Source: Dehalococcoidia bacterium (lineage in GTDB: Bacteria; Chloroflexota; Dehalococcoidia; UBA2979). From it: DNA of 42,843 bases. Positions 16,267 through 34,355 of the stretch are shown piece by piece. Position numbers and translations under genes: made by a program. How positions within the stretch are numbered: position 1 is the first letter of the stretch; each line of letters starts with the position of its first letter. The stretch lies in NCBI GenBank assembly GCA_030745285.1, contig JASLOV010000063.1, positions 1 through 42,843 on the forward strand, given 5' to 3'. The notes below the pieces were generated by a model. The model saw only the letters and a program-made list of their open reading frames with translations. It did no database searches and was not told the origin of the DNA.

Positions 16267-16354
16267 GCGTGACGCCGGCTGGGCTCCGGAACCTTTCGGC
16301 GGTGTCGCCGTATCTGCTAGTGCAACCTTGGCTTGCTCTGCTGGCGACTCGCGC

Positions 16355-17308
16355 ATGCTGAAACCCGCCGCCGTCTTCCTCGCTGTCGTTGCGACCATCC
16401 AGTTCGTGACCCTGAGACCCGCAGCCTCGACGCCTTTCCACGGGGACGGGCAGGGCGAGGTCGACGCGCTCATGGAGCGCGCCCTGGAGTCACGGGCTGA
16501 GAACTGGCTCACGCTGCACGATTACATCCTGGACGAGCGCGAGACCCTGACACTGGAGGGGCCCGGAGCCGTCAACCTGTACGGGTTCGACCACGAGTTC
16601 ACATGGTACATCCGGGACGGCTTCTTGATCCGCAGCCCGGTGCGCTACGACGGCGTCGCGATCGACGGCGCCGAGCGGGAAGAGTTCGAAGCGGAGTGGC
16701 TTCGCGACGAGCGGCGACGCTACGCGCGGGCCGAGGAGCGTGACGTGGCCGACGAGTCTGACGTCGACACCGAGTCAGTCGAGCCTCGGTTGATCTCCGA
16801 GGCCAACTTCTTCGACTTCGAGTTCGAGCCGGGGAACTACTACTTCGCCGGTCGAGAGATTCTGGACGGGCACGAGGTCCTGATCATCGAGTACTACCCG
16901 ACGCGGTTCGCCGCGGACGAAGACGAGGAATGGGACGAGCCCACGGACGACGAGGACGAGAAGCGCGAGCGGGAACGCGAGCGGGAAATGGAGAACATGT
17001 TCGCCAAGACGTCGCTCGTGACGATGTGGGTCGATCCCGAGGAGGCCCAGATCGTGAAGTTCACCTTCGAGAACGTCGGGTTCGACTTCCTGCCGCTCCG
17101 ATGGCTGGTGCGCGTCGACGAGATGCGCGCGTCGATGGTCATGAGCCAGCCGTTCGACGGCGTCTGGCTGCCCGAGGAGATCACGATGCGCGGCCGCGTG
17201 ACGTCCGCCTACGGTTCGCTACAGATGGCCTACACACGGGCTTTCTCGAACTACAAGGAGGCGGAGGTCAGTGCCACGATCCGGTCGTTCCGGCCTCCCG
17301 GGGAGTAG
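16355..17308 (+). CDS. Secreted LolA-like (outer-membrane lipoprotein-sorting-protein fold) protein with an acidic low-complexity insert
   Basis: ATG at 16355 (MLKPAAVFLAVVATIQF); the ORF-track start at 16328 is a TTG. NYYFAGREILDGHEVLIIEYYP, VTMWVDPEEAQIVKFTFEN and DGVWLPEEITMRG match the LolA_like pattern as I recall it. The acidic insert is DEDEEWDEPTDDEDEKREREREREME. Confidence 0.6.
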   Translation: MLKPAAVFLAVVATIQFVTLRPAASTPFHGDGQGEVDALMERALESRAENWLTLHDYILDERETLTLEGPGAVNLYGFDHEFTWYIRDGFLIRSPVRYDGVAIDGAEREEFEAEWLRDERRRYARAEERDVADESDVDTESVEPRLISEANFFDFEFEPGNYYFAGREILDGHEVLIIEYYPTRFAADEDEEWDEPTDDEDEKREREREREMENMFAKTSLVTMWVDPEEAQIVKFTFENVGFDFLPLRWLVRVDEMRASMVMSQPFDGVWLPEEITMRGRVTSAYGSLQMAYTRAFSNYKEAEVSATIRSFRPPGE

Positions 17309-18614
17309 CATCCCGCGAACCGCCGGGCGAGCGCTGCTGGCCTGCGCGTTCGCGTCTGTCTACCTCTTCACCGCCCCCGTCTCCGTCCGGGGACAGGCGG
17401 TGGCCCCAGCCCAGCCCGCAGCGCTCGCGCCGCCCGAGGTTGTCGTCGAGGTCCGCGTTCACGGCAACTACTCAATACCCGACGGCGACGTGATCCGGCT
17501 GGCCGGGATCGCGCCGGGCGATTTGCTCGGGCCTGGCGCGGTTGAGTCGATCGAGGGGCGCCTCAGGCAGAGCGACCGCTTCGACGGCGTCGAGGTTCGC
17601 AAGCGCTACCGGTCATTCACGGCGACGCAGGATGTTGCGCTGATTCTGGTGGTCCGCGAGCGGGCGTCCGAGCCGACCGGCAACGTGCTGCTCCGGACCG
17701 GCCAGGTGCTGGCGCGGAAGTCGCTGTTCATGCCGGTCGTGTCCTACGCCGAAGGCTACGGCTTCACCTACGGTGTCCGGGCCAGCACGCTCGATCTGTT
17801 CGGTGCGGGCGAGCAGCTCTCGATCCCGCTGACCTGGGGCGGCAACAGGCGCGCGGCGGTCGAGCTGAACCAGGCATTCGAGCGCGGAACGCCCGGGCAG
17901 CTGCGGGCCGGGGTGGGCGTTTCCAGCCGGGAGCATCCCCATTTCGAGGTGGACGATCGCCGGGTCGAGCTGTGGGCGGGCGTTGACGTCGAGGTCGTCG
18001 ACGGCCTGCGCCTCGGAGGAGACGCGGGGTGGACCGACATCGAATTCGATCAGACGAGTGACCGGTTCGCGACCTACGGTCTGAACCTTTCGTTCGACAC
18101 CCGACACGATCCGACGTTTCCGCGCGATGCCGTCTTCGCCGAAGTGAGAAGGACTTGGCTCGCCCCGGCTGCGTTCGACGCGGTTGTCGGTCGCACCCGG
18201 GTCGATCTGCGCGGCTACAAGGGCGCCTTCGGTCAAGCCGTCGTGTCGGTGCGGGGGCTGTACGAAGGCGCCGACAAGGCGCTACCCGCCTACGAGCAGC
18301 CGCTGCTGGGCGGCGGCCCGACCGTGCGGGGCTACTCGTTCGGGCAGTTCGCCGGCGACAGCCTTGCGGTCGCGTCCGCCGAGCTTCGCCTGCCGCTCAC
18401 CTCGCCGATGAACATCGGCAACGCCGGCGTGACGGTGTTCTACGATACGGGCGCGGCCTACGACGTCGGCCAGCGGCTGCGGAAGACCCGCTTCCACCAG
18501 GGCGTCGGCGCGGGGCTGTTTCTCATCGCGACGGTCTTTCAGCTGAAGCTCGACGTGGCCAAGGGGTTCGACGACGGCACGCACCTGCACCTGTCGGCCG
18601 GGTTCCAGTTTTGA
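17271..18614 (+). CDS. Omp85/BamA-superfamily outer-membrane protein with a single POTRA domain
   Basis: GTG start with AAGGAGGCGGAGG directly upstream. It overlaps the previous gene by 38 nt. The signal peptide is followed by one POTRA-like unit (VVVEVRVHGNYSIPDGDVIRLAGIAPGD...VALILVVRE). Barrel motifs are LGGGPTVRGYSFGQF and VFYDTGAAYD, and the protein ends in SAGFQF. Confidence 0.85.
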   Translation: MPRSGRSGLPGSSIPRTAGRALLACAFASVYLFTAPVSVRGQAVAPAQPAALAPPEVVVEVRVHGNYSIPDGDVIRLAGIAPGDLLGPGAVESIEGRLRQSDRFDGVEVRKRYRSFTATQDVALILVVRERASEPTGNVLLRTGQVLARKSLFMPVVSYAEGYGFTYGVRASTLDLFGAGEQLSIPLTWGGNRRAAVELNQAFERGTPGQLRAGVGVSSREHPHFEVDDRRVELWAGVDVEVVDGLRLGGDAGWTDIEFDQTSDRFATYGLNLSFDTRHDPTFPRDAVFAEVRRTWLAPAAFDAVVGRTRVDLRGYKGAFGQAVVSVRGLYEGADKALPAYEQPLLGGGPTVRGYSFGQFAGDSLAVASAELRLPLTSPMNIGNAGVTVFYDTGAAYDVGQRLRKTRFHQGVGAGLFLIATVFQLKLDVAKGFDDGTHLHLSAGFQF

Positions 18615-21215: not shown

Positions 21216-21388
21216 CGAGGTTCATCGCCGCGTGCTCAGCGCGCATCAGGCTCCCGATCTCGACGGCCTGATCCTGAAGGGTTCGATGACCCTGCCCATG
21301 CCTGTTCGGCTCCTCCGAGTCGCACCGGCGAACTCACTTCACCGTGATCTGGACCACCACGGAGGGGTAGAATTGGCGCGTGCCGCCG

Positions 21389-21408
21389 GGTATGAGCGTG
21401 GTCATACC
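21389..21408. promoter_or_regulatory. Inverted repeat GGTATGA-N6-TCATACC upstream of the ferredoxin/AOR operon (candidate operator)
   Basis: Read directly: GGTATGA at 21389-21395 and TCATACC at 21402-21408. It lies 35 nt before the GTG start at 21443 and about 16 nt downstream of a TAGAAT -10-like hexamer (21368-21373). Confidence 0.3.
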
Positions 21409-21442
21409 TTGGGCCCGGGTCGGCACTTATAAGGAAGACGTA

Positions 21443-21958
21443 GTGATTCAGTGCGATATCGGGCTCTGTGTCGGGTGCAGGATCTGCGAGGTGACCTGCA
21501 GTGCCGCGCACTTCGGTGCGGTCCTGCCAGCGCTCTCGCGCATCCGCGTCGCCAAGCTGGAAGAGATCGGCATCGACATGGCGGTCGCGTGCATCAGTTG
21601 CGCCGAGAAGCCCTGCCTCGTCTGTCCGACCGACGCGCTGGCGGTCGGGGAGCGGGGAGAGATCGTGCTCTCCGCCGAGTTGTGCACCGCGTGTCAGGAG
21701 TGCACCGACGCATGTCCGGTCGGCGCGGTCGGATTCTACGAGGACCATCCGCTCTTCTGCGATCTCTGTGACGGCGATGTCTCGTGCGTCTCGACGTGCC
21801 CGACCGACGCGCTGTCCTACGTGGACGAGTGCGGCGCGTCGCTGGAGGCATTTGCCGAGTCCGACGGGTGTCCGGCCGAGAAGCGCACCATCTACGTCGC
21901 GGTGCAGGGCGTGCCGATTCGTGAGAACTGGGCCGCCGGCCGGAGAGTCGATTCATGA
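21443..21958 (+). CDS. Polyferredoxin, 4x[4Fe-4S] (AorA/HybA-like electron-transfer subunit)
   Basis: Four Cys clusters: CVGCRICEVTC, CISCAEKPCLVCP, CTACQECTDACP and CDLCDGDVSCVSTCP. I prefer the GTG at 21443, which has AAGGAAG 6 nt upstream and gives (M)IQCDIGLCVGC. The ORF-track start at 21380 is the alternative. The stop overlaps the AOR start (ATGA). Confidence 0.8.
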   Translation: MIQCDIGLCVGCRICEVTCSAAHFGAVLPALSRIRVAKLEEIGIDMAVACISCAEKPCLVCPTDALAVGERGEIVLSAELCTACQECTDACPVGAVGFYEDHPLFCDLCDGDVSCVSTCPTDALSYVDECGASLEAFAESDGCPAEKRTIYVAVQGVPIRENWAAGRRVDS

Positions 21959-23751
21959 GCATCTGTCGCGGAACGGCTCTGCGCGTCGATCTCACGACCC
22001 AGGAGATCGTCAAGGGCGAGACTCCCGACGACGGCATCGGCGGACGGAGTTGGAACAGCCAGACACTCCTGCGCGAGTTGGCACCGGGCATCGATCCACT
22101 CGGTTCCGAGAACATCCTCTGCCTGTCGGTTGGCCCGTTGACGGGCAGCGAGTTGATCGGCAGCTGTCGCTTCATCGCGAGCGCGAAGAGCCCACTTACG
22201 GGCTTCCTGGGCGATTCCGGCGCGCGCGGCTTCTTCGCGCCCGAGCTGCGCTGGGCCGGAGTCGATCAGATCGTGCTCACGGGCGCGGCCGACCGATGGG
22301 TCTATCTGCTCATTGACGATGGCACGGCCGAGCTTCGAGACGCGTCGCATCTCGTCGGACGCGACATCACGGAGACGACCACCGACCTTCGTACCGAGTT
22401 GCACGACCCCGACCTGCAGGTGGCCGCCATCGGCCCCGCCGGAGAACACCTCGTCCGATACGCGATCATTTCCTGCAATCTGGCGCGTGCGGCCGGCCGG
22501 ACCGGCATGGGCGCCGTGATGGGGTCGAAGCGGCTGAAGGCGATCGCCGTTCGGGGCCGCCAGCCCGTGAAACCGGCCGATCCCGATCGGTTCCGGCGGG
22601 CCTGCGCGGCTCTCGCGGCGTCCATCGAGGGGCACCCCGAGTTCGAAGCCCGCCGACTGTACGGAACGACCCGGATCATGGACTCGCTGGCGGAGATGGG
22701 GGTGTTACCCGCGTATCATTTTCGCAGCGCCCACTTTGACGAGGTCGAGAAGGTCAACGGGCAGGCGCTGCGACGGGACCATGTCGTCAAGCCGAAGTCC
22801 TGCTACAACTGCAACATCTACTGCTCGCGGTACAACGTCACGGAGTACAACGAGGGTGAGGGCCCCGAGTACGAGGCGCAGGCCGGGTTCACCGTCAAGT
22901 GCGGGAACACCGACCTCGAGTTGGCCGTCGGCGTGTCGAATACGGTCAACCGGCTCGGGCTCGATTGCATCAGCACCGCCGAGGTCATCGCGTGGCTGAT
23001 GGAATGCCGCCACGAAGGGCTGATCACCGACGCGGACGTCGGCGGCATCGATCTCGGGTGGGGCTCGCGAGAAGCCCTGCTGCGACTGCCGGAGATGATC
23101 GCGCGGCGCGAAGGGATCGGAGACCTGCTCGCCGACGGCTCGCGACGCGCGGCCGAGGTCTTGGGGCCCGAGACCGCTAGACTGACCGCGGAGGTCAAGG
23201 GGCTCGAGCTGTTCTCAGCCGATCCGAGGGGGATCAAGGGGTACGGCCTGATGAACGCCGTGAACTCCCGGGGCGGCGACCACTACCGGGCGGAACCTTC
23301 GATCGAGTTGACGGGAGACGAAGCCCTCGCCATCCGACGGGTTGGCAATCCCGATGCGGCGCATGCCAAGAAGGAAGAGGGCAAGGGCGCGCTGGTCAAC
23401 TACGCCGAGCACCTGGGCATCCTCTCGGACAGCCTGACGATCTGCAAGAACATCTCGTGCTGCATGGACGTCGTCGACTTCGACCTCGCATCCGATGCCT
23501 ACTCCGGGCTCCTGGGCACGGAGGTGTCGGCAAGCCAGCTCTGGGACGTCTGCACCCAGGTCGGTCAGGCCGAGCGCGACTTCAACCTTCGAGAAGGGCT
23601 CCGACCGGACGACGACACGTTGCCGCGGCGCTTCGTGGAGTCCCCGATCCCCGATGGCCCGGCGGCGGGCACGACCATTGACATCGCGAGGCTGGTCAGC
23701 GATTACTACCGTGAGAAGGGATGGCCCGAGCCGCCACGAGGGGAGAGCTGA
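21955..23751 (+). CDS. aor: Aldehyde:ferredoxin oxidoreductase (AOR) family tungsto/molybdopterin enzyme
   Basis: The N-terminus TALRVDLTTQEI and AAGRTGMGAVMGSKRLKAIAVRG match the AFOR_N domain. CYNCNIYC (CxxCxxxC) plus a distal Cys in LTICKNISCC provide the [4Fe-4S] ligands. GPEYEA and SRGGDHYRAEP are pterin-binding motifs. Confidence 0.9.
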   Translation: MSICRGTALRVDLTTQEIVKGETPDDGIGGRSWNSQTLLRELAPGIDPLGSENILCLSVGPLTGSELIGSCRFIASAKSPLTGFLGDSGARGFFAPELRWAGVDQIVLTGAADRWVYLLIDDGTAELRDASHLVGRDITETTTDLRTELHDPDLQVAAIGPAGEHLVRYAIISCNLARAAGRTGMGAVMGSKRLKAIAVRGRQPVKPADPDRFRRACAALAASIEGHPEFEARRLYGTTRIMDSLAEMGVLPAYHFRSAHFDEVEKVNGQALRRDHVVKPKSCYNCNIYCSRYNVTEYNEGEGPEYEAQAGFTVKCGNTDLELAVGVSNTVNRLGLDCISTAEVIAWLMECRHEGLITDADVGGIDLGWGSREALLRLPEMIARREGIGDLLADGSRRAAEVLGPETARLTAEVKGLELFSADPRGIKGYGLMNAVNSRGGDHYRAEPSIELTGDEALAIRRVGNPDAAHAKKEEGKGALVNYAEHLGILSDSLTICKNISCCMDVVDFDLASDAYSGLLGTEVSASQLWDVCTQVGQAERDFNLREGLRPDDDTLPRRFVESPIPDGPAAGTTIDIARLVSDYYREKGWPEPPRGES

Positions 23752-24980
23752 TGAATGCACGAGAGCAGGATCGCAGGCGCTTCTTGAAGAGCGGCGCAGC
23801 GCTGGCCGGATTGGCGGTGGGCGGGACCCCGTCGGCATACGGCCAGCCGATGTCGAGAGATGTCTCCAGGATTCCTCCCTACGGCATGCGCTCGCGGTTC
23901 GAGACCTCGCACCGGGGTAGCGGGAGACTGCACTCGGGGCAGTCGCCGCTTCAAGATTCGGTGGGGATCATCACCCCGAACCCACTTCACTACGTGGTGA
24001 GTCATGGGGCCTGGTCGCCGGATATCGATCCGCAGGCACATCGTCTCCTGGTCGACGGCATGGTCGACCGTCCGCTGGTCTTCACGATGGACGAGTTGAA
24101 GCGCCTGCCGTCCGTCACGCGGACCCATTTCCTCATGTGCGCGGGCAGCAGCTACGTGACGCGCGGACCGAGGCGGAACGCGCGGACCGTTCAGGAGACC
24201 CACGGGTGGACGAGTTGCGCCGAATGGACCGGGGTGCCGCTCTCCATCGTGCTCGCTGAGGCGGGCGTGCAGGACAGGGCCAGCTGGGTCGTCGCGGAGG
24301 ACGTGACGCGGAAGTGGACGGTGAGCATCCCCCTGGCCAAGGCGATGGACGACACGGTGCTGGTCTACGGCCAGAACGGCGAGGCGATACGCCCCGAGCA
24401 GGGCTACCCGCTGCGGATGCTGGCCCCGGGCTTCGAGGGCACCCGTAGCACGAAGTGGTTGCGGCGAATCAAGGTCGTGGACGAGGCCTATCTCACCCGG
24501 TGGGAGATCACCGTCTACACGAACCTGATGCCGGACGGTAAGGCACGCTGGTTCCAGTTCGAGTTCGAACCGAATTCCGTGATCACCTTCCCGTCGGGCG
24601 AGCAACAGCTGCCGGGTCCAGGATTCTTCGAGATCACCGGCTTGGCGTGGTCCGGCGGCGGCGCCGTCCGCAGGGTGGAGGTGTCCGTCGACGGCGGTCG
24701 CACCTGGGCGGACGCGCAGATTCAGGACCCGGTGCATCGGATGGCACACACCCGGTTCCGGTTCCCTTGGCAGTGGCAGGGCGGCGAGGCGACGCTGCAG
24801 TCGCGCTGCACCGATGAGCGGGGGGACATCCAGCCATCGCTGGCCGAGTTGAACCAGATCTGGGGTGTGGACAACGAATACTGGACGACATCCACCAACC
24901 GGGTCCAGCACCTCAACGCCATTCAACCCTGGAAGGTCGATCGAGACGGGAGCGTTCGCAATGCGATATGGGAATCGTGA
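23751..24980 (+). CDS. Sulfite-oxidase-family molybdoenzyme, SoxC/SorA-like, Tat-exported
   Basis: The ATG at 23751 overlaps the AOR stop by 1 nt (TGATG). The Tat signal is MNAREQDRRRFLKSGAALAGLAVGG. LMCAGSS contains the Mo-ligand Cys. GYPLRMLAPGFEG is present, followed by a C-terminal dimerisation/Ig-like domain. Confidence 0.9.
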   Translation: MNAREQDRRRFLKSGAALAGLAVGGTPSAYGQPMSRDVSRIPPYGMRSRFETSHRGSGRLHSGQSPLQDSVGIITPNPLHYVVSHGAWSPDIDPQAHRLLVDGMVDRPLVFTMDELKRLPSVTRTHFLMCAGSSYVTRGPRRNARTVQETHGWTSCAEWTGVPLSIVLAEAGVQDRASWVVAEDVTRKWTVSIPLAKAMDDTVLVYGQNGEAIRPEQGYPLRMLAPGFEGTRSTKWLRRIKVVDEAYLTRWEITVYTNLMPDGKARWFQFEFEPNSVITFPSGEQQLPGPGFFEITGLAWSGGGAVRRVEVSVDGGRTWADAQIQDPVHRMAHTRFRFPWQWQGGEATLQSRCTDERGDIQPSLAELNQIWGVDNEYWTTSTNRVQHLNAIQPWKVDRDGSVRNAIWES

Positions 24981-25653
24981 CGTGATCGTGCCACTCGCCG
25001 TTGTGATGACCCTGGCCGCCAGCTCCGCGCTGGCGCAGGGACCCGCGTATGGACTGGGCAGGGCGCCCACAGCCGACGAGGTCAGTGCCTGGGGGATCAT
25101 CGTCGGTCCCTCCGGACAGGATCTGCCACCGGGGAGCGGCACCGCCGAGGACGGCGCGAGCATCTACGGCGCGAAGTGCGCCTACTGCCACGGTCCGACC
25201 GGTGCGGAGCCGTACATGTCTCGGAGACGAGAGCGGCCGTTCACGCCGGAGATGTACTGTTGCTTCCCGGCGCCACTGGTGGGAGGCGAGTCCTCGCTCA
25301 CGACCCTCATTCCCGTGAAGACCGTCGGAGCCTACTGGGCCTCGGCGACGACGCTGTGGGACTACATCGCGCGAGGGATGCCCCCGAACGAGAACTACCG
25401 GAACACGAGAGGGGGCTACGAGTTCGCCGAGCGAGTCAATGCGCAGGGCCCGCTCAGCGACGACGACGTCTACGCGCTCACGGCGTTCATCCTGTTTCAG
25501 AACGGCCTCGTCCAGGAGCGCGACGTCATGAACGCCGAGAGTCTGCCGAACGTCAAGATGCCTGGCCGTGACGTGATGATCCCCGCCGACCCGAACACGT
25601 GGTATCCGAAGCGGCAGGTCGATCCGCACGTCAGCCCGAACTCGCGGCCGTAG
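24961..25653 (+). CDS. Monohaem cytochrome c, SoxD/SorB-like partner subunit
   Basis: ATG at 24961 inside ORF 24865..25653. The signal peptide is MRYGNRDVIVPLAVVMTLAASSALAQG. The haem motif is CAYCH. KTVGAYWASATTLWDYIARGMP and DDDVYALTAFILFQNGLV resemble SoxD. It overlaps the upstream gene by 20 nt. Confidence 0.85.
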   Translation: MRYGNRDVIVPLAVVMTLAASSALAQGPAYGLGRAPTADEVSAWGIIVGPSGQDLPPGSGTAEDGASIYGAKCAYCHGPTGAEPYMSRRRERPFTPEMYCCFPAPLVGGESSLTTLIPVKTVGAYWASATTLWDYIARGMPPNENYRNTRGGYEFAERVNAQGPLSDDDVYALTAFILFQNGLVQERDVMNAESLPNVKMPGRDVMIPADPNTWYPKRQVDPHVSPNSRP

Positions 25654-25677
25654 CCGTCGGCCCTCGTCGCGTGCCGC

Positions 25678-28311
25678 TCAGGCGCCTTGCGCCGGGCCGG
25701 CCGACTCGGGACTCGGATGCGCCGCGGTCCTGGGCACGACGGTTGACGCGGGCAGTCTCAGGAATCGCTCGAGCACGCGCTGGAGATCCGGCACACGGAG
25801 CGGCTTGGAGAGGTAGTCGTCCATGCCGGCTTCCAGACACCCATCGCGATCGCCGGCCATGGCGTTCGCCGTCAGCGCCACGATCGGCGTGTGGATGCCA
25901 GGGGCCTCCTGCCGACGAATCTCGGCCGTGGCCTGAAACCCGTCCATTTCCGGCATCTGGCAGTCCATGAGCACGACGTCGTACGTCCGCGCGCTGAGCG
26001 CGTCCACCGCGTCCCGGCCGTTCGCGACGACGTCGGCACGATAGCCCAGCCGTTCGAGCGTGAGCACGATCACCTTCTGGTTGACGACGTTGTCCTCTGC
26101 CACCAGGATGCGGGACTTCGCCTGGGATTCGTGTTCAGCGAGATCGTGGCGCGTTACGAGCGGCGCGTCCGGGGTCGTCGTGACCTGCGCCAGCACGGTC
26201 TGGACGCACGCGAGGAGCTGGCGGCGCCTGACCGGCTTCGTCAAGTAGCCGGCGAATCCGGCCGCCCGGGCCTCGGCCGCCTGTCCGCGCTGCCCGCTGG
26301 AGGTCAGCAGAATGAGCGCACCGTTGGCGAACGCCGGCGCCTGGCGGAGCCGGCGTCCCAGCTCGAGGCCATCCATGCCGGGCATCATCATGTCGAGGAC
26401 CGCGATCGGATAGGCGACGCCGGCCTCGTGTGCGGCGGCCAGGTGAGCGAGCGCCGCCTCGCCTCCGATCTGGGCTTCGACCTGCATTCCGGCCGCGCCC
26501 AACTGCTGGGTGAGCAGCGTTCGATTCGTCGCGTTGTCGTCGACGACGAGGACGCGTACGCCCGCCAAGGCGGAGAGATCGACCGGCGCAGGGGCGGCGG
26601 TGCTCTCGGCCTTGGCCAGGCGCACGGTGAACCAGAACGTGCTGCCTTGTCCCTCGGCGCTCTCGACGCCGATGGTGCCGCCCATGAGCTCGACCAACTG
26701 CTTCGAGATGGCCAGGCCCAATCCGGTGCCGCCGTACTTCCGCGTCGTCGAGCCGTCGGCCTGCGAGAACGGCTGGAACAGCCGCGGCTGTGCCTCGGCC
26801 GGAATTCCGCATCCCGTGTCACGCACCTCCACGCGCAGGATGGCCGCGTCGGCCGAGTCGTCGTGCCGCGTCGCGCGCACGACGACCTCACCCTCGGCCG
26901 TGAACTTGACGGCGTTGCCCACGAGGTTCATGAGCACCTGCCGCAACCGGCCGGGATCGCCCGTCACCGTCACGGCGATGTTCGGATCGATGAGTGCCGT
27001 GAGCTCGACGCCCTTGTCGTGCGCGCGCGCCGCCAGCAGCTCGACGACGTCCTCGACCGTCGTGCGAAGATCGAACTCCCGCGACTCGATCGTGAGGCGA
27101 CCCGCCTCGATCTTCGAGAAGTCCAGGACGTCGTTGATGATCGTGAGCAGCGCTTCACCCGAGCCGCGGACGGTCTCGGCGTAGTCGCGCTGCTCGCGGT
27201 TGAGCGATGTTTCGAGCAGCAGGTCGGTCATACCGATGATCCCATTCATCGGCGTCCGGATCTCGTGGCTCATCATGGCGAGGAAGGCGCTCTTCGCCTG
27301 GGTCGCCTGTCGCAGCGCCTCCCGTTCGCGGAGCGTTTCGATCTGCTTCGTGTGGGCCCGCTCCACGGCCAGCCGCGCCATCAAGATCAGCAAGACCGAG
27401 ACGATCGTCAGCGCGGCGGACAGGTCGCGGAACCCGTCCAGCACGTCGGGCAACGGCAGCGCCGAGCGCAGCGCGTAGTCGAGGACGGGAATGAGGCCGA
27501 GCGCCGCGAAGATCAGCCAGGGGCGAGAGGCGGTCGTCGCCTCGTCCTCACCGGGCGCCGGATCCGCCGCCGTGGCCGGGGCGTCGTAGGCGGCCCACGC
27601 GTAGAAGAAGAACGGCAGGATCCAGGTGACGTCGTAGACGAAGACGCTGCGATAGACGCCCTGCCAGATGTCGATGTAGCTGATGGTCGACGTGACGAAG
27701 TAGACCAGGAGGCCGAACGCGAGGCGCCGGTAGGTCGACTCCCAGCGCGTGCCCCGCGTCGCGACCATGATGCCGGCCATGCCCGCCACGGCCAGCAGTT
27801 GCTGCAACTCTGAGAGCCACAGCAGCGACAACGACGCGCGATCCACGCTGTCCGGCGCGGCGACCAGGCTGGTGACGACGTGCGAGTAGAGGAAGCCGAC
27901 GAGCACGGCCAGTCCGGCGATGTCGACGGCCGTGGTGGGCGCCGCGGCGTCGCGGCTCCCGCGATGGGGCTGCGCGAGGAGCGCCAGCAGCGGCGTCGCG
28001 CCGCCGAAGAGCGCGAAGACCGCATGCCAGCCCAGCCAGGAAGTTTCGCGGGCAAGCAGAAACTCGTCGAGCGTCCAGCCGATAAGTCCAATGGAGGAGA
28101 CGGCGAGGCCGAAGGCGATCGTGGCCCAGAAGAGCCAATGACACCCGGACCACTCCCGGCGCCGATGGGCGATCACACCGATGCCCAGCAGCGGCGGGAC
28201 CAGCAGCGTGCCGCATCGGAACCAGAGCAGGGCGGCCGGGAGATCTCGGAGGAGCCAACCCACCGTCAGGTAGACGAGCGAGTAGGCGGCTCCCGCCGCA
28301 AGCCAGAGCAT
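25678..28311 (-). CDS. Hybrid sensor histidine kinase: polytopic membrane N-terminus, HisKA, HATPase_c, REC, REC
   Basis: There are about 8 hydrophobic helices in the first 300 aa. The H-box is [23 protein letters not shown]. The ATPase boxes are [16 protein letters not shown] and [11 protein letters not shown]. Receiver 1 contains LVVDDNATN...[12 protein letters not shown]...YLTKP. Receiver 2 contains LVAEDNVVN...[12 protein letters not shown]...LTANA...YLSKP. Confidence 0.9.
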
Positions 28312-28497
28312 TCACCAGGATTGTCGACCGGATCGCGCGAGGAAGACAGCAGATTGAGAGGCATCCTTGCACCGGATTCGCAGCATCCTGACAGCAGCTG
28401 ACACCAGCGGACAGAAGCGTTGGTGAGCGACGGCGTGTTCGAGGCCAGCGTCCGAACGTCGTATCATGACGTCCGAACCACGAGCCAGGGGGAAGCG

Positions 28498-28983
28498 GTG
28501 AGCGAACAAGACGACTCGGGCGAGGCCAGGCGCCTGGCCGACGAGGCGATGGCGCAGATTGCGGAGGTGGCGTCGCGGCCGCCACCGCCTCCGGCGGCCG
28601 AGGTGCGCGCTGGGACGAGACGGCGTGTGGCGCTCATCGGATTGGCCGTCGGTGTACCGACGCTTGCGTTCCTGCTGGTGCAGGATTTCGCCGTCGGCGG
28701 CGTACGGGCGTTGCTCCAGCCGCGCCTCCCCGAGGCCGAGCTTCGCCTGCAGATACTGAGCACGGTCAACGACCTCGTCATCGAGATCGATGCGTTCTAC
28801 GAGGACTACGGTGAGTTGCCCGAGAGCCTCGTGGAGGTGGCCTCGCCGTCTGCCGCCGGGTGGCGTTACACGCTCGTCGGGCGCGACAGGTATCGCGTCG
28901 AGCTCACGCAGGATGGGCAGTCGGTGACCTACGACTCGGCGGACGACGCCGACGAAGTGTTCGAGGAGGTACGGCAGCCATGA
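28498..28983 (+). CDS. Hypothetical single-pass membrane protein, Pro-rich N-terminus, translationally coupled to the prepilin gene
   Basis: Part of ORF 28420..28983, whose track start is a TTG. I favour the GTG at 28498 (GGGGGAAG upstream) or the ATG at 28549. The one TM helix is RRVALIGLAVGVPTLAFLLV. The stop overlaps the pilin ATG (ATGA at 28980-28983). Confidence 0.5.
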   Translation: MSEQDDSGEARRLADEAMAQIAEVASRPPPPPAAEVRAGTRRRVALIGLAVGVPTLAFLLVQDFAVGGVRALLQPRLPEAELRLQILSTVNDLVIEIDAFYEDYGELPESLVEVASPSAAGWRYTLVGRDRYRVELTQDGQSVTYDSADDADEVFEEVRQP

Positions 28984-29531
28984 CCGGTAGGAATCCTCGT
29001 CCGGCGCGGAGTGATCTCGGGTTCACGCTGATCGAACTGATGCTGGTTGTCACGATCATCGGCATCGTCGCGGCGATCGCGATTCCGGCCCTCGGCCGGG
29101 CGCGGATCGCGTCGTTCGAAACGGCGGCGATAGGAGCACTGCGGACATTGGGCAGCGCGCAGTCGGCCTTTGCGGCTTCCTGTAGCGGTGGCTACTTCGC
29201 GCCGTCCCTCGTCTGGCTGGGGCGTGCGCCCGCCGGTGGGGATGCATTCGTCCAGCCCGATCTGGTGGGGAACGGGCGACGCGTGGATCGGCAAGCCTAC
29301 CAGCTGCGATTCGCGGCCGGCCGGCGAGCCCGGAGCAGCCCGGCGGCGTGCAACGGGCTGCGGCCGGGCCGTGCCGTCGAGAGCTACTTTGTCGGCGCCA
29401 ACCCGCGGAACCGCCGGGAAGGTGCGAGGTACTTCGGGACCAACTCGAGCGGCACGATCTACCAGAGCACGCGCCGCGTACGGGTCACGCAGATGGGCGT
29501 GCCGCGGGCACCCGCCCGACCGATTCAGTAG
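28980..29531 (+). CDS. Type IV pilin / pseudopilin with prepilin-type N-terminal cleavage/methylation motif
   Basis: The leader MTGRNPRPARSDLG|FTLIELMLVVTIIGIVAAIAIP shows G|F cleavage and Glu+5. AAIGALRTLGSAQSAFA is typical of PilA-like pilins. Two Cys residues (ASCSGG, AACNG) could form a disulfide loop. Confidence 0.85.
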   Translation: MTGRNPRPARSDLGFTLIELMLVVTIIGIVAAIAIPALGRARIASFETAAIGALRTLGSAQSAFAASCSGGYFAPSLVWLGRAPAGGDAFVQPDLVGNGRRVDRQAYQLRFAAGRRARSSPAACNGLRPGRAVESYFVGANPRNRREGARYFGTNSSGTIYQSTRRVRVTQMGVPRAPARPIQ

Positions 29532-29549
29532 CGGCGCTGCAGGTGTGAC

Positions 29550-29918
29550 CTAGGAGGGTAACTTGGCCAGGAGCTGCCCGAGTTCGGTGACCTGCCGCTC
29601 GAGGTCCGCGTAGGCCTGCTCGGCCCTCGACAGGTCGGTGGCCCGACCGAACGATTCGAGCCGACGCGCCGTCTCGTAGGCGCCGTCCGTACCGAAGATG
29701 CCGACCGACCCCTTCAGGATGTGGGAGGTCCGGGCCACGGCCCCGGCATCCCGCCGCTCGACCGCGTCACGCACCGCCGAGAGCTGTGACGGGTAGGCTT
29801 GCAGAAACGCCTCACCGACCTGGCCCAACATCTCCGCGTCACCATCGAATCGGTCGATCAGCACGTCCATCGGCGTCTTCGCCTCTGTCGCGTGTTTCGT
29901 TCGACCCTGTCGGCCCAT
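29550..29918 (-). CDS. Stand-alone histidine phosphotransfer (Hpt) protein
   Basis: ARTSHILKGSVGIFG is the HxxKG phospho-His motif. DRFDGDAEMLGQVGEAFL is the usual Hpt N-terminal helix. The start is at ATG 29918 (122 aa) or ATG 29870 (106 aa). The longer track ORF (to 30095) is Arg-rich and unlikely to be coding. Confidence 0.8.
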   Translation of the reverse strand: MGRQGRTKHATEAKTPMDVLIDRFDGDAEMLGQVGEAFLQAYPSQLSAVRDAVERRDAGAVARTSHILKGSVGIFGTDGAYETARRLESFGRATDLSRAEQAYADLERQVTELGQLLAKLPS

Positions 29919-30111
29919 CAGGTGTGCCCGCTTCGTTCGGGCCACACACCCACCTGTCAAAGCAGGAACGGTGCCAGTGCGGCCCCGGCGACGATCGACG
30001 AAAGAACCAATGCTAGCAACTGTTTCGGTCACTGTTCTTCTTGGCTTGAGTACGGGAGCGGGCGGAAGCGCACACAAGCGGGCGCCCCGACGCACAGGTG
30101 TGCGCTCGGTC

Positions 30112-32280
30112 TCAGCCCCGCGCCCGACGGAGGGCCGCCTTGGCGCGCGCCAGGAACCGCCGGGGCTCGATCGGCTTCCGGATGTAGTCGTCGGCGCCGC
30201 GATCGATCAGCTGAGTCTCGGCGTCCGGGTCGGGGCTGCTCGTGAACACGATGATCGGCAGCCCCGCGGTTCCGACGGTCGCGCGGGCCCGCGCGAGGAC
30301 GCCCCAGCCATCCAGCCGCGGCATCTCGAGGTCCAAGATCATCAGCGAGTAGACCTCCTGCTCGAGGGCCAGGAGGGCGGTGACGCCATCGGCCGCCTCC
30401 GACACCTGGCAGCCTTCCCGTTCGAGTAGCGCCTTCGCGAACGTCCGATTCGTCGGGTCGTCGTCGACGACGAGGATGCGTGCGCCGTCCAGGGACGCCG
30501 TCGGAAGTCCAGCCGCCGAACTGGTCGTCGGATCGGCCGCGCGCGAGATCAGTTCCGTGGTCGATGACAGCCCGGCGTCGACGGGCTCCGTGCCCGGGCC
30601 GCCGACGACCCGCTCGATCTCTCCGAGCGTCGTCAGGCACTGCTGCTCCATGGCCAGGCCGACCTGGCGCAGCGTTCGCATCCCTTCCTTGACCGCCGCG
30701 GCTTCGAGATCGGTTGCGGTCGCCCCCGAGGCGATCAGCGTCTGGAGCGCCGGACTCATCATCAGGGTTTCGACGACGGGAAGTCGGCCGACGAACCCGG
30801 TGCCGTCGCACTGGTCGCACCCGGATACCCGCATCGTCGCGGTGACGCCAAAGAGTTGGCCGAGCCGTTGCTCGTCGTTCGAGAGGTCCCCGACAATCCG
30901 GACGCCGCACGTGGCGCAGACACGCCGGATCAGCCGCTGGGCCACGACGCCACGCACCGTGTCCACGAGCGCCGAGGGGTCGAGGCCCAGGTCGACCAGC
31001 CGGCGGACGGCGCTCGCGGCGTCGTTCGTATGCACCGTGGCCAGCACCAGGTGGCCCGTCAGACTCGCCTGGACGGCGATCTCCGCGGTCTCGGCGTCCC
31101 GGATCTCACCGACGAGGATGATGTCCGGATCCTGTCGGAGGATCGCGCGCAGCGCCGAGGCGAACGTCACGCCCTGCTTCGGGGCGACCTGCATCTGCGT
31201 CGCCGCGGGCAGCTCGTACTCGATCGGATCCTCCACTGTCATGATGTTGACGTCCTCGGTGGCCAGCTCCCACAACGCGGCGTAGAGCGTCGTCGTCTTG
31301 CCCGATCCGGTGGGGCCGGTGACGAGGATGATGCCCTGTCGTTCCTTCAAGAGCGTCCGGAGGCGCTCGAGCTCCGGGTCGGCAAGTCCCAGCGTGTCGA
31401 GGCGCGCTGAGGACGTCGGATCGAGGAGGCGGATGACGGCCTTCTCGGACCCGCGCGTCGGCACGGTGGAGATCCGCATGTCGAAGACGCGGTTGGCGAT
31501 CGCGAGGCTCGTCCGCCCATCGTGCGGTTTCAGGCGGTTCGACAGGTCGATATCGCTGAGCACCTTGATCCGGGACACGACCCGGTCCATGACCGGCAAC
31601 GGCAGCTGCATGTAGTGACTGAGCACGCCGTCGATCCTGAATCGAACGACACCGCCGCCTGCGCCGGGCTGGATGTGAATGTCGCTGGCTCGGCGCGCGA
31701 CGGCATCCCGGAAAATGAGGTTCGTCAGCTTGATGACGGGGCCGCCCTCGACCTCATCGGCCGTGACCTGGGCGGGGCCCTGGTCATCCACGTCACTGAC
31801 GAGCGTCTCGAGATCCTCGTCGACGTGGGCGAGCAGCGTCTCGACGGCGCGGTCGGGCGAGTACCGTGACTCGATGATCTTCGAGAGCGCCGCGGGCGGC
31901 GCGACCGCCATCACGGGCTTGCGACCCGACGCGAACGCGATGGCTTGCTCGGTGTCGAGGTTCAGCGGGTCGGCGCTCGCGACGTGCAGGTTGCGGTCGT
32001 CCTCACGAAGTGGGAAGACCTGGAACTGCTGGACGACGCTGCTCGGCAGGAGCCGCGTGGCAGCCGAACGCGCCGCCTCGAGATTGGCGACCTCGAGGTT
32101 GAGTGCGGTGGCAATCGACTCAGCCAGATCGGTCTGCGAGACGCCGCAGTGCCGTGAGACGGCGGTCCAGGCGTCGGCTGCCGGCGTCTTCGGTTCGACC
32201 GCCAGATGCTCCGCGTCCTGGAGTCGGGCGGTACGGGCGGCGCGAACGAGCCAGTGGACCGGTTCGGATTGGGGAGCCAT
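30112..32280 (-). CDS. PilB/GspE-class type IV pilus / type II secretion assembly ATPase fused to a C-terminal response-regulator receiver domain
   Basis: - GSPII_E N-domain: LLPSSVVQQFQVFPLREDDRNLHVASADPLN.
- Walker A: GPTGSGKTTT.
- Walker B/Asp box: DPDIILVGEIRD.
- His box: TGHLVLATVHTNDA.
- Tetracysteine: CATCG...GCDQCDGTG.
- Ser/Thr/Pro linker.
- REC (about 30115-30486): ILVVDDDPTN, LMILDLEMPRLDG, IIVFTSS, DYIRKP. Confidence 0.9.
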   Translation of the reverse strand: MAPQSEPVHWLVRAARTARLQDAEHLAVEPKTPAADAWTAVSRHCGVSQTDLAESIATALNLEVANLEAARSAATRLLPSSVVQQFQVFPLREDDRNLHVASADPLNLDTEQAIAFASGRKPVMAVAPPAALSKIIESRYSPDRAVETLLAHVDEDLETLVSDVDDQGPAQVTADEVEGGPVIKLTNLIFRDAVARRASDIHIQPGAGGGVVRFRIDGVLSHYMQLPLPVMDRVVSRIKVLSDIDLSNRLKPHDGRTSLAIANRVFDMRISTVPTRGSEKAVIRLLDPTSSARLDTLGLADPELERLRTLLKERQGIILVTGPTGSGKTTTLYAALWELATEDVNIMTVEDPIEYELPAATQMQVAPKQGVTFASALRAILRQDPDIILVGEIRDAETAEIAVQASLTGHLVLATVHTNDAASAVRRLVDLGLDPSALVDTVRGVVAQRLIRRVCATCGVRIVGDLSNDEQRLGQLFGVTATMRVSGCDQCDGTGFVGRLPVVETLMMSPALQTLIASGATATDLEAAAVKEGMRTLRQVGLAMEQQCLTTLGEIERVVGGPGTEPVDAGLSSTTELISRAADPTTSSAAGLPTASLDGARILVVDDDPTNRTFAKALLEREGCQVSEAADGVTALLALEQEVYSLMILDLEMPRLDGWGVLARARATVGTAGLPIIVFTSSPDPDAETQLIDRGADDYIRKPIEPRRFLARAKAALRRARG

Positions 32281-32304
32281 GAGGCGCTGAGGGAGTCTCG
32301 TCAG

Positions 32305-32874
32305 CTAGCCCTTGGTGTAGGCCGTCCGGTTCGACGATGACGGGCCGCCGAGTACGCCGCTGAGAGTCGTTTCGACCACGAGCGACGGCGGGCTCGCCAA
32401 CCGGGTTGAGGGTTCGAACGAGAGTTTCCGTTTCACCTCGCTCGTCAGCGGCTGGCCGTCGTCAGGGTCGGGGAAGCTGTGGAGCGTCGTGATCACCAGC
32501 GTGTCACCTTCCCAGGCTGTCCACGAGACTTGCTCCTGGATCCCGCGGCCCATCATGACCGTGTGCTGCGTCTCGGTCCCGTCCAGCGGGTAGGTAAACT
32601 CGAGCGGCGGCTGCAGGTCGCCTCGCGAGAAGAAGACGTACTCGACGGTGAGCGTGTCGGCGTCCTGCGCGATCGTGATCGTCGACCCCCAGCCGCTGCC
32701 CATCGTGCCCGTCGGCGCGCCCCGGCCGCCGGGTGTCGGCCTCGCCTCGGCCGCCGCGGTCCAGTGTCCGGAGAAGTCGGGTCGCTCCTGCGCCGCGGTG
32801 CCGGTTGCCAGCAGGCCGGCCACGGCGGCCGCCACGATGCACGTCAATCTCGGTGATCTCGATCCTGCCTTCAT
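32305..32874 (-). CDS. Secreted hypothetical protein (small beta-rich, lipocalin-like pattern)
   Basis: The signal peptide is MKAGSRSPRLTCIVAAAVAGLLATGTAAQ. It is followed by DFSGHWT and alternating beta-like segments. It lies 24 nt upstream of the ATPase gene on the same strand. I recognised no catalytic motif. Confidence 0.6.
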   Translation of the reverse strand: MKAGSRSPRLTCIVAAAVAGLLATGTAAQERPDFSGHWTAAAEARPTPGGRGAPTGTMGSGWGSTITIAQDADTLTVEYVFFSRGDLQPPLEFTYPLDGTETQHTVMMGRGIQEQVSWTAWEGDTLVITTLHSFPDPDDGQPLTSEVKRKLSFEPSTRLASPPSLVVETTLSGVLGGPSSSNRTAYTKG

Positions 32875-32909
32875 TCGCTCTCTCCTCGTGCACCCGCTGT
32901 GCGCCGCAC

Positions 32910-34355
32910 CTACCGCGTGCCGCCCGGTGGGACGTACGGGTCGTCGGCGCCGGCCGGCACGTTGGGGTACAGGTCGGTCGACGCCATGAACTCGGCCACG
33001 ATTCGATCAGCCACACTCTTCACCCACGGGTTGGCGTCCTTGACGTCCGATTCCTCCTTCGGATCGGATCGCAGGTTGAACAGCCGCATCGTCGACGTCG
33101 GGTTCGGATCGCCCGGCTCCGGCCGGAACGCGTACCAGAACTTCCAGTCCTTCCATTTGACCGCGAGCACCCGGCCCCCCATGGCCATGAAGATGACGCT
33201 GTCACGGTTCGAGTGTGCCTGCTGGCCTTCGAGGAACGCGAGCTGATTCACGCCGTCGATCGCGCGGTCGGTCGGCACGATCTCCGGCGCCCCGACCGCG
33301 GCGGCCAGCGTCGGGAAGAAGTCGACCTGATGGACGATCTCGTTCGACACCTGCCCCGCGGGGATCCGGGCGGGCCAGCGGATGACGCACGGCGTCCGGA
33401 TGCCGCCTTCCATCGCCGAGTTGTAGAACCCGTTCCAGGGCCCGGCCGAGCCGCGCCAGGGCCGCCGCCGCTCCGCGCCGTTGTCGGTGCACCAGAAGAC
33501 GATCGTGTTCTCCGCGATATCCAGGCGGTCGATCGCGTCGAGCACGAGCCCGACGTTGTGGTCGACGTCCGCCATCGCGTCGCCGATGTCGCCCGCGCCG
33601 GTCGCGCCGGCGAAGTCGGGATGCGCCAGGGTGGGGAAGTGGATCTGGGTCATCGGATAGAAGAAGAAGAATGGGCGGTCGGCGTCGATCTGCCGCTCCA
33701 TGAAGTCGATGCCGCGCTCGGCGGCCTCGCGGTCGAGCGTTCGCCGCGTCTCCATGTCGAATGGTTTCAGCTTCCGCGGCCGTTCACCGGCCCGACCCTC
33801 CCAGATGTAGGGCGTCTCCATCGTGGCCGGATCCCAGGTGTCGAAGGTCGTGAACTGCGAGGTGTGGCTCGTGCCCGGGATGCCGTACCACTCGTCGAAG
33901 CCCTGGTCGGTCGGCTCGCGCCGCCCCTCCCAAGTGTTGTCACCGCCGACGTGCCACTTGCCGAACAGTCCGGTCGCATAGCCCACCGACTGCAACGCCT
34001 CCGGGAGGGTGACCTCCCACAGCGTCATCCCGCTCCGCTGGGTCGCGCCGGCGCGCACGGCGTAGCGCCCGGTAAGCAGCGCCGTCCGGGAGACGGTGCA
34101 CGAGTACTCGACAATGAAGTTCGTCAGCCGGATCCCCTCGGCGGCGATCTGGTCGATCCGGGGCGTCGGCACACCACGGACGCTGCCGTAGGCCCCCACC
34201 TCGCCCCAGCCCAGGTTGTCGGGGAACATCAGGACGATGTTCGGCCGCTCGGGCGCGGTGTCCTGCGCGGCGACCGGCGCCGCGGCCCCGGTGAGGCCGA
34301 GTCCGGCGAGGAGCCAGCACGCGATGAACCGACGTGGTCTCCTGAGCATCTCCAT
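32910..34355 (-). CDS. Arylsulfatase-family (formylglycine-dependent sulfatase) enzyme, secreted
   Basis: The signal is MEMLRRPRRFIACWLLAGLGLTGAAAPVAAQ. Motifs are NIVLMFPDNLGWGEVG, active-site SCTVSRTALLTGRY, GKWHVGG and WCTDNGA. Confidence 0.9.
   Translation of the reverse strand: MEMLRRPRRFIACWLLAGLGLTGAAAPVAAQDTAPERPNIVLMFPDNLGWGEVGAYGSVRGVPTPRIDQIAAEGIRLTNFIVEYSCTVSRTALLTGRYAVRAGATQRSGMTLWEVTLPEALQSVGYATGLFGKWHVGGDNTWEGRREPTDQGFDEWYGIPGTSHTSQFTTFDTWDPATMETPYIWEGRAGERPRKLKPFDMETRRTLDREAAERGIDFMERQIDADRPFFFFYPMTQIHFPTLAHPDFAGATGAGDIGDAMADVDHNVGLVLDAIDRLDIAENTIVFWCTDNGAERRRPWRGSAGPWNGFYNSAMEGGIRTPCVIRWPARIPAGQVSNEIVHQVDFFPTLAAAVGAPEIVPTDRAIDGVNQLAFLEGQQAHSNRDSVIFMAMGGRVLAVKWKDWKFWYAFRPEPGDPNPTSTMRLFNLRSDPKEESDVKDANPWVKSVADRIVAEFMASTDLYPNVPAGADDPYVPPGGTR

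Follow-up and report, generated by a model that had tools for sequence, protein, structure and literature searches.

An active question is what turns the motors of type IV pili and related secretion systems on and off, and the known inputs are cyclic di-GMP (c-di-GMP), adaptors of the PilZ/FimX type and, of late, separate response regulators in contact with PilB. The question is raised in another form by a gene on a contig of 42,843 nucleotides (nt), JASLOV010000063.1, listed at NCBI under 'Dehalococcoidia bacterium'; the whole of this stretch is called the window here. The gene joins an ATPase of the PilB/GspE class to a C-terminal phospho-receiver (REC) in a single protein, referred to below as ATPase-REC. 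The analysis led to a reading that we hold with moderate confidence, in which ATPase-REC is the terminal response regulator of a phosphorelay that controls the ATPase of a type IV filament; phosphorylation is thus the probable switch of the motor.

The open reading frame (ORF) was found to be uninterrupted over 722 codons from ATG to stop, as the preliminary description of this DNA had claimed, and its G+C content at third codon positions (GC3) of 0.88 matches that of the genuine genes of this 68% GC window. An identical public database protein, MDP6605215.1, is named 'ATPase, T2SS/T4P/T4SS family'. The coordinates of every part were verified by translation (Table 1), and all the motifs previously quoted as signs of an intact catalytic core, namely Walker A, the Asp box/Walker B, the His box and the tetracysteine zinc module, lie where they had been placed. 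The Pfam domain T2SSE was matched over the ATPase core at 398.7 bits against a cut-off of 24.9. A single-chain AlphaFold2 prediction made with 40 relatives, with a mean predicted local distance difference test score (pLDDT) of 84 and a predicted template modelling score of 0.54, gave a confident N-terminal domain and ATPase. The Foldseek comparison placed the core closest to Thermus PilF and Geobacter PilB, with template modelling (TM) scores of 0.85-0.88, and GspE/EpsE came next. Score, motifs and fold agree, and ATPase-REC belongs to the PilB/GspE/PilT secretion ATPase superfamily PF00437.

The C-terminal domain has the score, the acidic pocket, the D/T/K residues and the predicted fold of a two-component receiver. 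Response_reg was matched at residues 602-713 with 88.4 bits against a cut-off of 30.2, the acidic residues D606/D607/D608, the phospho-acceptor D650 and the residues T680, Y699 and K702 are in place, and residues 600-721 were predicted to fold as a textbook five-fold beta-alpha unit with a pLDDT of about 95. Judged by these residues, the domain is almost certainly phosphorylatable, which agrees with the earlier claim of a canonical receiver. It follows the ATPase on a linker of 39 residues, close to the length of about 40 first given, of which residues 564-595 were predicted to be disordered (pLDDT 31-42). No structure spanning ATPase and receiver was found in the PDB by the Foldseek and sequence-level searches.

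Table 1. Positions of the ATPase-REC gene, its parts and other features of the window
Feature	Position (nt)	Strand	Residues or length	Basis or remark
ATPase-REC gene	30112-32280	minus	722 aa + stop	MshEN(N1)-T2SSE ATPase-linker-REC; ORF, Pfam, database identity
N-terminal domain	31831-32256	minus	62-144 (Pfam MshEN)	5.4e-16; pLDDT >90
PilB/GspE-type ATPase core	30610-31749	minus	178-557	PF00437, 2.5e-119
Walker A	31288-31317	minus	322-331	GPTGSGKTTT
Asp box/Walker B		minus	384-395	DPDIILVGEIRD
His box		minus	409-421	GHLVLATVHTNDA
Tetracysteine zinc module		minus	455-459; 487-495	CATCG; GCDQCDGTG
Flexible linker	30484-30600	minus	561-599	GPGTEPVDAGLSSTTELISRAADPTTSSAAGLPTASLDG; low pLDDT, length variation in family
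Receiver	30115-30483	minus	600-722	PF00072, 4.6e-25; predicted (beta-alpha)5 topology
Codon of D607	starts 30460	minus	607	acidic pocket
Codon of D650	30331-30333	minus	650	phospho-acceptor
Codon of T680	starts 30241	minus	680	switch residue
Codon of K702	starts 30175	minus	702	switch residue
Hpt phosphotransfer protein	29550-29870	minus	106 aa from Met	PF01627, 6.5e-10; family Hpt profile, 7e-41
Hybrid sensor histidine kinase	25678-28311	minus	877 aa	Pfam HisKA, HATPase_c, two receivers
Prepilin-like protein	28980-29531	plus	183 aa	class III signal ...RSDLG/FTLIELM (slash, cleavage site); PF07963 N_methyl
Membrane-anchored protein	28420-28983	plus	187 aa	one transmembrane segment, about residues 68-95
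Protein with signal-like segment	32305-32874	minus	189 aa	N-terminal hydrophobic segment
Redox gene run	21380-25653	plus		beside the hybrid kinase gene
Outer-membrane protein genes	15298-18614			DUF481; POTRA + Omp85

Whether the fusion is genuine was decided by its relatives. The best 120 database clusters (90% clustering) were 48-68% identical to the window protein, and all 120 carried MshEN, T2SSE and Response_reg; their named members were mostly Gemmatimonadota (Longimicrobiales, Gemmatimonadales), with one from Acidobacteriota. An exhaustive HMMER search covered 1.84 billion representatives at 50% clustering. Among the best 150 matches, 103 had the ATPase followed by the receiver and one had the receiver first, the others being fragments, tandem ATPases or other fusions. 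A frameshift between ATPase and receiver, which the preliminary description had wished to see checked, and a chimera are both excluded, because the same three-domain single protein occurs in many independent assemblies. The view of the fusion as an assembly or sequencing artefact, in which an indel joins two genes, is accordingly given practically no credence: the single-polypeptide architecture recurs in more than 100 independent clusters from many assemblies and on long contigs of 1-4 Mb, and the junction is spanned by a continuous family alignment.

Across the 120 relatives, Walker A, the Asp box/Walker B, the His box and the four cysteines were invariant or nearly so. In the receiver, D607, D650 and T680 were kept in 120 of 120, K702 in 119 and Y699 in 118. 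This near-invariance places both halves under purifying selection for function. The rarity implied for the architecture at first did not hold, since the family is large, spans at least four phyla and is already annotated automatically; JGI names its members 'PilB-like protein/CheY-like'. The arrangement thus proved common; the preliminary description was to be refuted if it was common and already characterised, and of a characterisation nothing was found. The full-text literature search returned no functional or structural study of a PilB/GspE-type ATPase with a C-terminal REC, a provisional result in that most subscription journals lay outside the search. The family is large and widespread, and apparently unstudied.

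The strongest evidence for the function of ATPase-REC comes from the neighbouring Hpt, kinase and pilin-like genes, which the preliminary description had overlooked. Directly downstream, on the same strand, lies a gene for a small Hpt phosphotransfer protein, whose ORF is open to 30095 and whose phospho-His motif reads SHILKGS. The hybrid sensor histidine kinase has a polytopic membrane N-terminus, an H-box (SHEIRTP) at residue 349 and two canonical receivers, both with D/T/K kept. Among NCBIfam models it is most like BarA, TorS and ArcB, with scores below their cut-offs. A hybrid kinase with receivers, an Hpt histidine, a terminal receiver and their genetic linkage, that is, the parts of a multi-step His-Asp-His-Asp phosphorelay, are all encoded at this locus.

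The same parts were sought at 24 family loci, which consisted of the window, eight loci on long contigs with Pfam annotation and 15 from a targeted metagenome scan; the scan used the C-terminal alignment, and about 19 of its 80 listed loci were true fusions, the remainder being ordinary receivers. The loci were searched with a family-specific Hpt profile, the window kinase core and the window receiver. As a result, an Hpt domain fused to or adjoining ATPase-REC was detected in 16 of the 24. It is a small upstream gene in four loci (L005, L090, L099 and L168, where it is a 90-aa ORF overlooked by Pfam) and a small downstream gene in the window, L087, L088, L093, L094, L169, L004 and L097, with an insertion sequence (IS) between ATPase-REC and Hpt in L004 and the Hpt gene on the opposite strand in L097. 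In L002 and L166 it is the C-terminal domain of a hybrid kinase whose end directly adjoins the ATPase start, and in L001 (the same as P0003) and L092 it is the N-terminus of the ATPase itself. At most of the eight loci without Hpt, the contig ends at or near the gene. A hybrid kinase closely related to that of the window (core E-values of 1e-54 to 1e-117) was found in 12 of the 24 loci, or 13 if the copy of L086, cut by the contig end, is included, and the core is followed by two receivers in every complete copy of the gene. Extra stand-alone receivers are present at several loci. The fusion, the adjacency and the shuffling of domains together suggest that hybrid kinase, Hpt and ATPase-REC are one functional unit. 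IS elements or transposases were also observed in or beside the signalling cluster (L004:12345-13483, L001:4704-5891 and L005:1-347).

As to which way phosphotransfer runs, what it does to the ATPase and which machine is served, we infer the following. The membrane-embedded hybrid kinase would autophosphorylate at His349, and the phosphoryl group would move to one of the kinase's own receivers, from which Hpt would relay it to the phospho-acceptor Asp650 of ATPase-REC. Phosphorylation may alter the way in which the tethered receiver docks near the C-terminal lobe, be it that of the same subunit or of an adjacent one in the ATPase ring. Such a change would turn on or off either the turnover of ATP or the engagement of the ATPase with its membrane machine. 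Driven by the ATPase, prepilin-like proteins, for instance the adjoining one, would be assembled into a type IV filament, either a pilus or a pseudopilus, with a PilC-type platform that is probably encoded elsewhere in the genome. Phosphorylation would then hold the regulatory place that N-terminal c-di-GMP binding has in MshE-type ATPases.

The linker bears on how such a switch could work. Its length in the family ranges from 11 to 308 residues (median 44.5) with a bimodal distribution, about one third of the members having only 11-13 residues and others more than 100, and Ala, Pro, Glu, Gly and Asp are frequent in it. This range suggests reversible docking of a tethered receiver and argues against a fixed mechanical gate, which bears on the idea of the preliminary description that six receivers could gate the closure of the hexameric ring. 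The same range is hard to square with a single precise allosteric geometry, which would suit a receiver that localises the ATPase or acts as a scaffold, or else is a sink for phosphate or a branch point of the relay, the ATPase being constitutive where it is recruited. The stand-alone receivers of several loci might compete for phosphate, variants with three REC domains or with REC-TPR exist, and the localisation of FimX is REC-dependent according to a 2024 review of PilB; FrzS is likewise positioned in a REC-dependent manner. Such an account is nonetheless unlikely. The switch residues T680, Y699 and K702 are almost invariant, as is typical of receivers with an activating conformational change, and a sink would not have to be joined covalently to an ATPase in four phyla. 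A receiver acting in trans, DrdR, does alter the ATPase activity of PilB.

The place of phosphorylation in the regulation depends on what the N-terminus can bind. The Pfam MshEN model covers only the N1 alpha/beta sub-domain and leaves out the helices to which c-di-GMP binds (Wang et al. 2016, PMC5013675, supplement), and the published 24-residue motif was therefore scored directly, as two tandem copies of RLGxx(L/V/I)(L/V/I)xxG(L/V/I/F)(L/V/I)xxxxLxxxLxxQ that stand 5 residues apart. The window protein scored 4-5 of 11 for the single motif and 7 of 22 for the tandem, and the family members in the loci scored 3-5 and 6-8, respectively; none of the 120 relatives had the motif within four mismatches. 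The control, E. coli NfrB, scored 10 of 11, and many ordinary PilB-like ATPases in a random genome panel reached 9-11 of 11 and 17-21 of 22. The claim that the N-terminus lacks the MshEN c-di-GMP repeat was thus borne out, yet the Pfam MshEN model does match this protein. In place of the motif, a signature peculiar to the family (HWLVRxARRAGL ... AWTAVxRxCGVSxxELA) is conserved at the N-terminus, and it is helical in a high-confidence prediction. The window protein aligns with the N-domains of PilB/PilF/XpsE only from about residue 47, and a PDB search with the N-terminal 158 residues gave no match to the V. cholerae MshEN structure 5HTL at E-values up to 10.

The loss of the site is specific to the ATPase-REC family, being neither phylum-wide nor general among REC fusions. 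A REC-less PilB from Gemmatimonadales (L013) scored 11 of 11 and 21 of 22, and the REC fusion of a deltaproteobacterium (L006) scored 10 of 11 and 19 of 22. The idea of the preliminary description that phosphorylation replaces c-di-GMP fits the ATPase-REC family, where the motif is absent and Hpt and kinase are linked, but it is not general, since L006 keeps both. With its near-perfect tandem motif and its REC, the protein of L006 (L006:1465-3849, Deltaproteobacteria bacterium HyVt-30) is a candidate dual-input motor for c-di-GMP and phosphorylation.

The neighbourhood also bears on a possible filament. Two genes on the plus strand, between those for the kinase and Hpt, overlap by 4 nt (stop/start) and encode a membrane-anchored protein and a prepilin-like protein. 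The latter scored 30 bits with TIGR02532 (cut-off 16.3) and is weakly similar to PilA/GspG/GspH. The former had no Pfam or NCBIfam match, and only two relatives sharing enough exact words were returned by a homologue search of 5.8 billion proteins, which points to a fast-evolving protein; a segment of it, GxLPxSL, may resemble one of GspG. This pair stands beside the fusion in 5 of the 24 loci (the window, L168, L089, L091 and L097), and prepilin-like genes adjoin the fusion in two of the four members from other phyla (L008 and L006). The pilin link is real but partial. A type IV filament is favoured by the intact N1 domain, by the zinc module and by the repeated presence of pilin-like genes nearby.

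The members from other phyla came from a genome-collection scan. Its patterns, TGPTGSGKT and GEIRDxETA, are universal to PilB/GspE, and its listed loci therefore served as an unbiased control panel of PilB-like ATPases. C-terminal REC fusions with canonical receiver residues made up 4 of these 80 randomly sampled loci from reference genomes: L006 in Deltaproteobacteria, L008 in Omnitrophota, and L009 and L010 in Actinomycetota, the last two with an extra zinc ribbon before REC. In L008, two prepilin-like genes, a 962-aa MshEN-T2SSE-REC protein and an orthodox PAS histidine kinase follow one another on one strand, the kinase gene starting 2 nt past the ATPase stop. In L006, a prepilin-like gene lies upstream of the fusion. 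A neighbour-joining tree of 224 ATPase cores, which carries no support values and whose representatives were chosen with the full-length query, contained one split that holds 115 of the 116 C-terminal-REC proteins, the four from other phyla among them. The split holds just 2 of the 73 REC-less panel ATPases, L007 and L055 (in L055 the match lies near the contig end), and the single N-terminal-REC protein sampled (P0266) falls outside. Within the limits of this unsupported tree, the REC-fused ATPases appear to be one distinct clade across four phyla and not repeated accidents. A separate clade also agrees with the scores of ATPase-REC below the equivalog cut-offs for PilB (464.3 against 675.65 bits, NCBIfam TIGR02538) and GspE (492.2 against 630.25 bits, TIGR02533).

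Several observations weigh against a phosphorelay-gated filament motor, among them these low equivalog scores and the way in which the tree was built. Two-component genes were not seen near the family loci L167, L102 and L095. No prepilin motif was found in the other 19 of the 24 family loci, and the pair of membrane-anchored and prepilin-like proteins occurs without the ATPase in L171 (L171:8001-9037). Pfam annotation of the 42.8-kb window contained no PilC/GspF (T2SSF), PilM/N/O, secretin or peptidase A24, and the same genes were missing from Pfam annotation within 10 kb in nine related loci; the absence of PilC is one by Pfam annotation, as L007, which was meant to supply reference PilC and PilT sequences, turned out to be a NUDIX fusion. 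The missing platform gene leaves room for a borrowed platform or a different role.

One different role would be that of a phosphorylation-controlled NTPase, for which this clade was recruited outside any filament system, the pilin-like neighbours being coincidental. The lack of platform and alignment-complex genes near any annotated member would fit this role, as would the position of the ATPase-REC gene among signalling or metabolic genes, the distinct clade below both equivalog cut-offs, sister proteins with NUDIX or GAF-PAS-GGDEF-EAL tails, and the ability of the transmembrane protein and pilin pair to stand alone. It is held to be improbable, because every feature of working PilB/GspE motors is kept, including N1 and the zinc module, and prepilin-like neighbours in Gemmatimonadota, Omnitrophota and Deltaproteobacteria exceed what coincidence suggests. 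In known systems, moreover, PilB and PilC are frequently unlinked from other pil genes.

If the ATPase is a filament motor, the filament might be a type II secretion-like pseudopilus, with the ATPase in the role of GspE and phosphorylation gating protein secretion. GspE gave the best NCBIfam score, 492 bits, slightly over the 464 bits of PilB; like GspE/XpsE, which do not bind c-di-GMP, the protein lacks the motif; and the pilin-like neighbour is weakly similar to GspG/GspH besides PilA. On the other hand, the GspE score is far under the cut-off of 630 bits, PDB sequence matches (PilB 352 bits, GspE 316 bits) and fold comparisons favour PilB/PilF, and no gsp genes (gspD/F/L/M) were seen near ATPase-REC. 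A pseudopilus is very unlikely on this balance, with the proviso that the data do not discriminate it from a pilus.

The clade also admits a broader suggestion, that the C-terminal-REC ATPases are an ancient separate branch of the PilB/GspE superfamily whose members would be phosphorelay-gated, self-contained motors that do not serve a canonical pilus or type II secretion system. They might form a minimal platform-free filament or export unit with the neighbouring transmembrane and prepilin-like proteins, or act as an ATP-dependent signalling output. We consider this doubtful, and prefer ATPase-REC as the relay-controlled ATPase of a type IV filament.

Compared with known systems, ATPase-REC is closest to PilB/PilF (Geobacter PilB 5TSG/5TSH, Thermus PilF 5OIU/5IT5, Myxococcus PilB 3JC8), with which it shares N1, the N2/C-terminal-domain ATPase, the boxes and the zinc module at about 40-42% identity of the core. 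Unlike these, it has a C-terminal receiver on a flexible linker and falls in a separate clade; it lacks the c-di-GMP motif that many PilB and MshE N-termini have, and in the window and nine loci it is not accompanied by pilC/pilT/pilMNOPQ. GspE/EpsE/XpsE have the superfamily and motifs in common with it, and XpsE, too, is without the residues that bind c-di-GMP (Wang et al. 2016, PMC5013675), but ATPase-REC differs from GspE in its sub-cut-off score, its lack of gsp neighbours and its extra receiver. The MshE-type ATPases activated by c-di-GMP, V. cholerae MshE and P. aeruginosa PA14_29490 (Wang et al. 2016, PMC5013675), resemble it as PilB-like ATPases with a regulatory input domain in cis; the input domain here is a C-terminal phospho-receiver, and the two c-di-GMP motifs are absent from the family (tandem scores of 6-8 of 22, against 17-21 in likely binders).

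Receivers have been connected with such ATPases before. REC-MshEN-T2SSE (Geobacter metallireducens Gmet_3473) and MshEN-T2SSE-cNMP-binding proteins have been catalogued, and MshEN-T2SSE-REC is absent from that table (Wang et al. 2016, PMC5013675, Supplementary Table 4). In contrast to that of ATPase-REC, the receiver of Gmet_3473 is N-terminal, an order met in one of the best 150 representatives, and the literature search found no functional study of this type. The stand-alone receiver DrdR of Xanthomonas campestris binds to both PilB and PilT, whose ATPase activity it raises (PMC13507683). The PatA-type proteins PixE/PixG of Synechocystis bind PilB1 and PilC, the contact with PilB1 being made through the PATAN domain and not REC (bioRxiv 10.1101/2021.06.11.447907). 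Both bring two-component signalling directly onto the pilus extension motor protein, as is proposed here; they are separate proteins, whereas the receiver of ATPase-REC is covalent and has its own Hpt and hybrid kinase. As precedents, they act in trans only. The 2024 review of PilB regulation mentions no PilB with a built-in receiver. Relays of the BarA, TorS, ArcB and LuxQ-LuxU-LuxO type consist of a hybrid kinase, a separate or fused Hpt and a terminal receiver, as here, and differ in that their terminal output is a transcription factor in place of a secretion/pilus-type ATPase.

Other tails were also found after T2SSE, in relatives inside the clade or close to it. Three REC domains follow it in P0155 and REC-TPR in P0124, and in P0199 and P0191 a (double) Zn-ribbon-REC is followed by about 750 residues without a Pfam match. 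In P0172 (1532 aa), the tail is GAF-PAS-GGDEF-EAL. In P0136 and P0141, two T2SSE ATPases seem to stand in tandem. The NUDIX fusion of L007 (L007:9932-12223, 763 aa, Gemmatimonadetes bacterium fen_1247, PMEM01000021.1) consists of MshEN, T2SSE and PF00293 NUDIX, and lies inside the C-terminal-REC clade as if NUDIX had taken the receiver's place. Trigger factor, ClpX, Lon and thioredoxin are encoded around it, and pil genes are absent.

The remainder of the window holds metabolic and envelope genes. The 189-aa protein with the signal-like segment, encoded 24 nt upstream of ATPase-REC on the same strand, had no family match and no counterpart in the other loci fetched. The redox run right beside the kinase gene encodes a 4Fe-4S ferredoxin-like protein, a tungsten/molybdenum aldehyde:ferredoxin oxidoreductase (AFOR_N + AFOR_C), a sulfite-oxidase-type molybdopterin enzyme and a c-type cytochrome. 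A scan of 25400-33000 for promoter and terminator consensus sequences gave nothing, which is uninformative in a non-model genome of 68% GC. The window also encodes outer-membrane proteins (Table 1), and Chloroflexota are generally held to be without an outer membrane. Since, in addition, the closest relatives of ATPase-REC are from Gemmatimonadota, the contig is probably mis-binned.

The architecture itself is visible in domain databases and follows the pattern of receiver-enzyme fusions, and the present results extend known principles. What they add is the conserved kinase-Hpt-ATPase module, the partial pilin link, the family-wide loss of the c-di-GMP site, the four-phylum clade and the missing platform gene; the absent platform protein and the lost c-di-GMP site are concrete oddities. 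The family hard-wires a phospho-receiver to a motor, so that signal, relay and motor can all be identified from sequence. The system lends itself to reconstitution from three or four purified proteins, which makes the effect of phosphorylation on a PilB-type hexamer directly addressable. Gemmatimonadota are a common and poorly studied soil phylum. With the family abundant there and present in three or more further phyla, such a mechanism would be of wide relevance.

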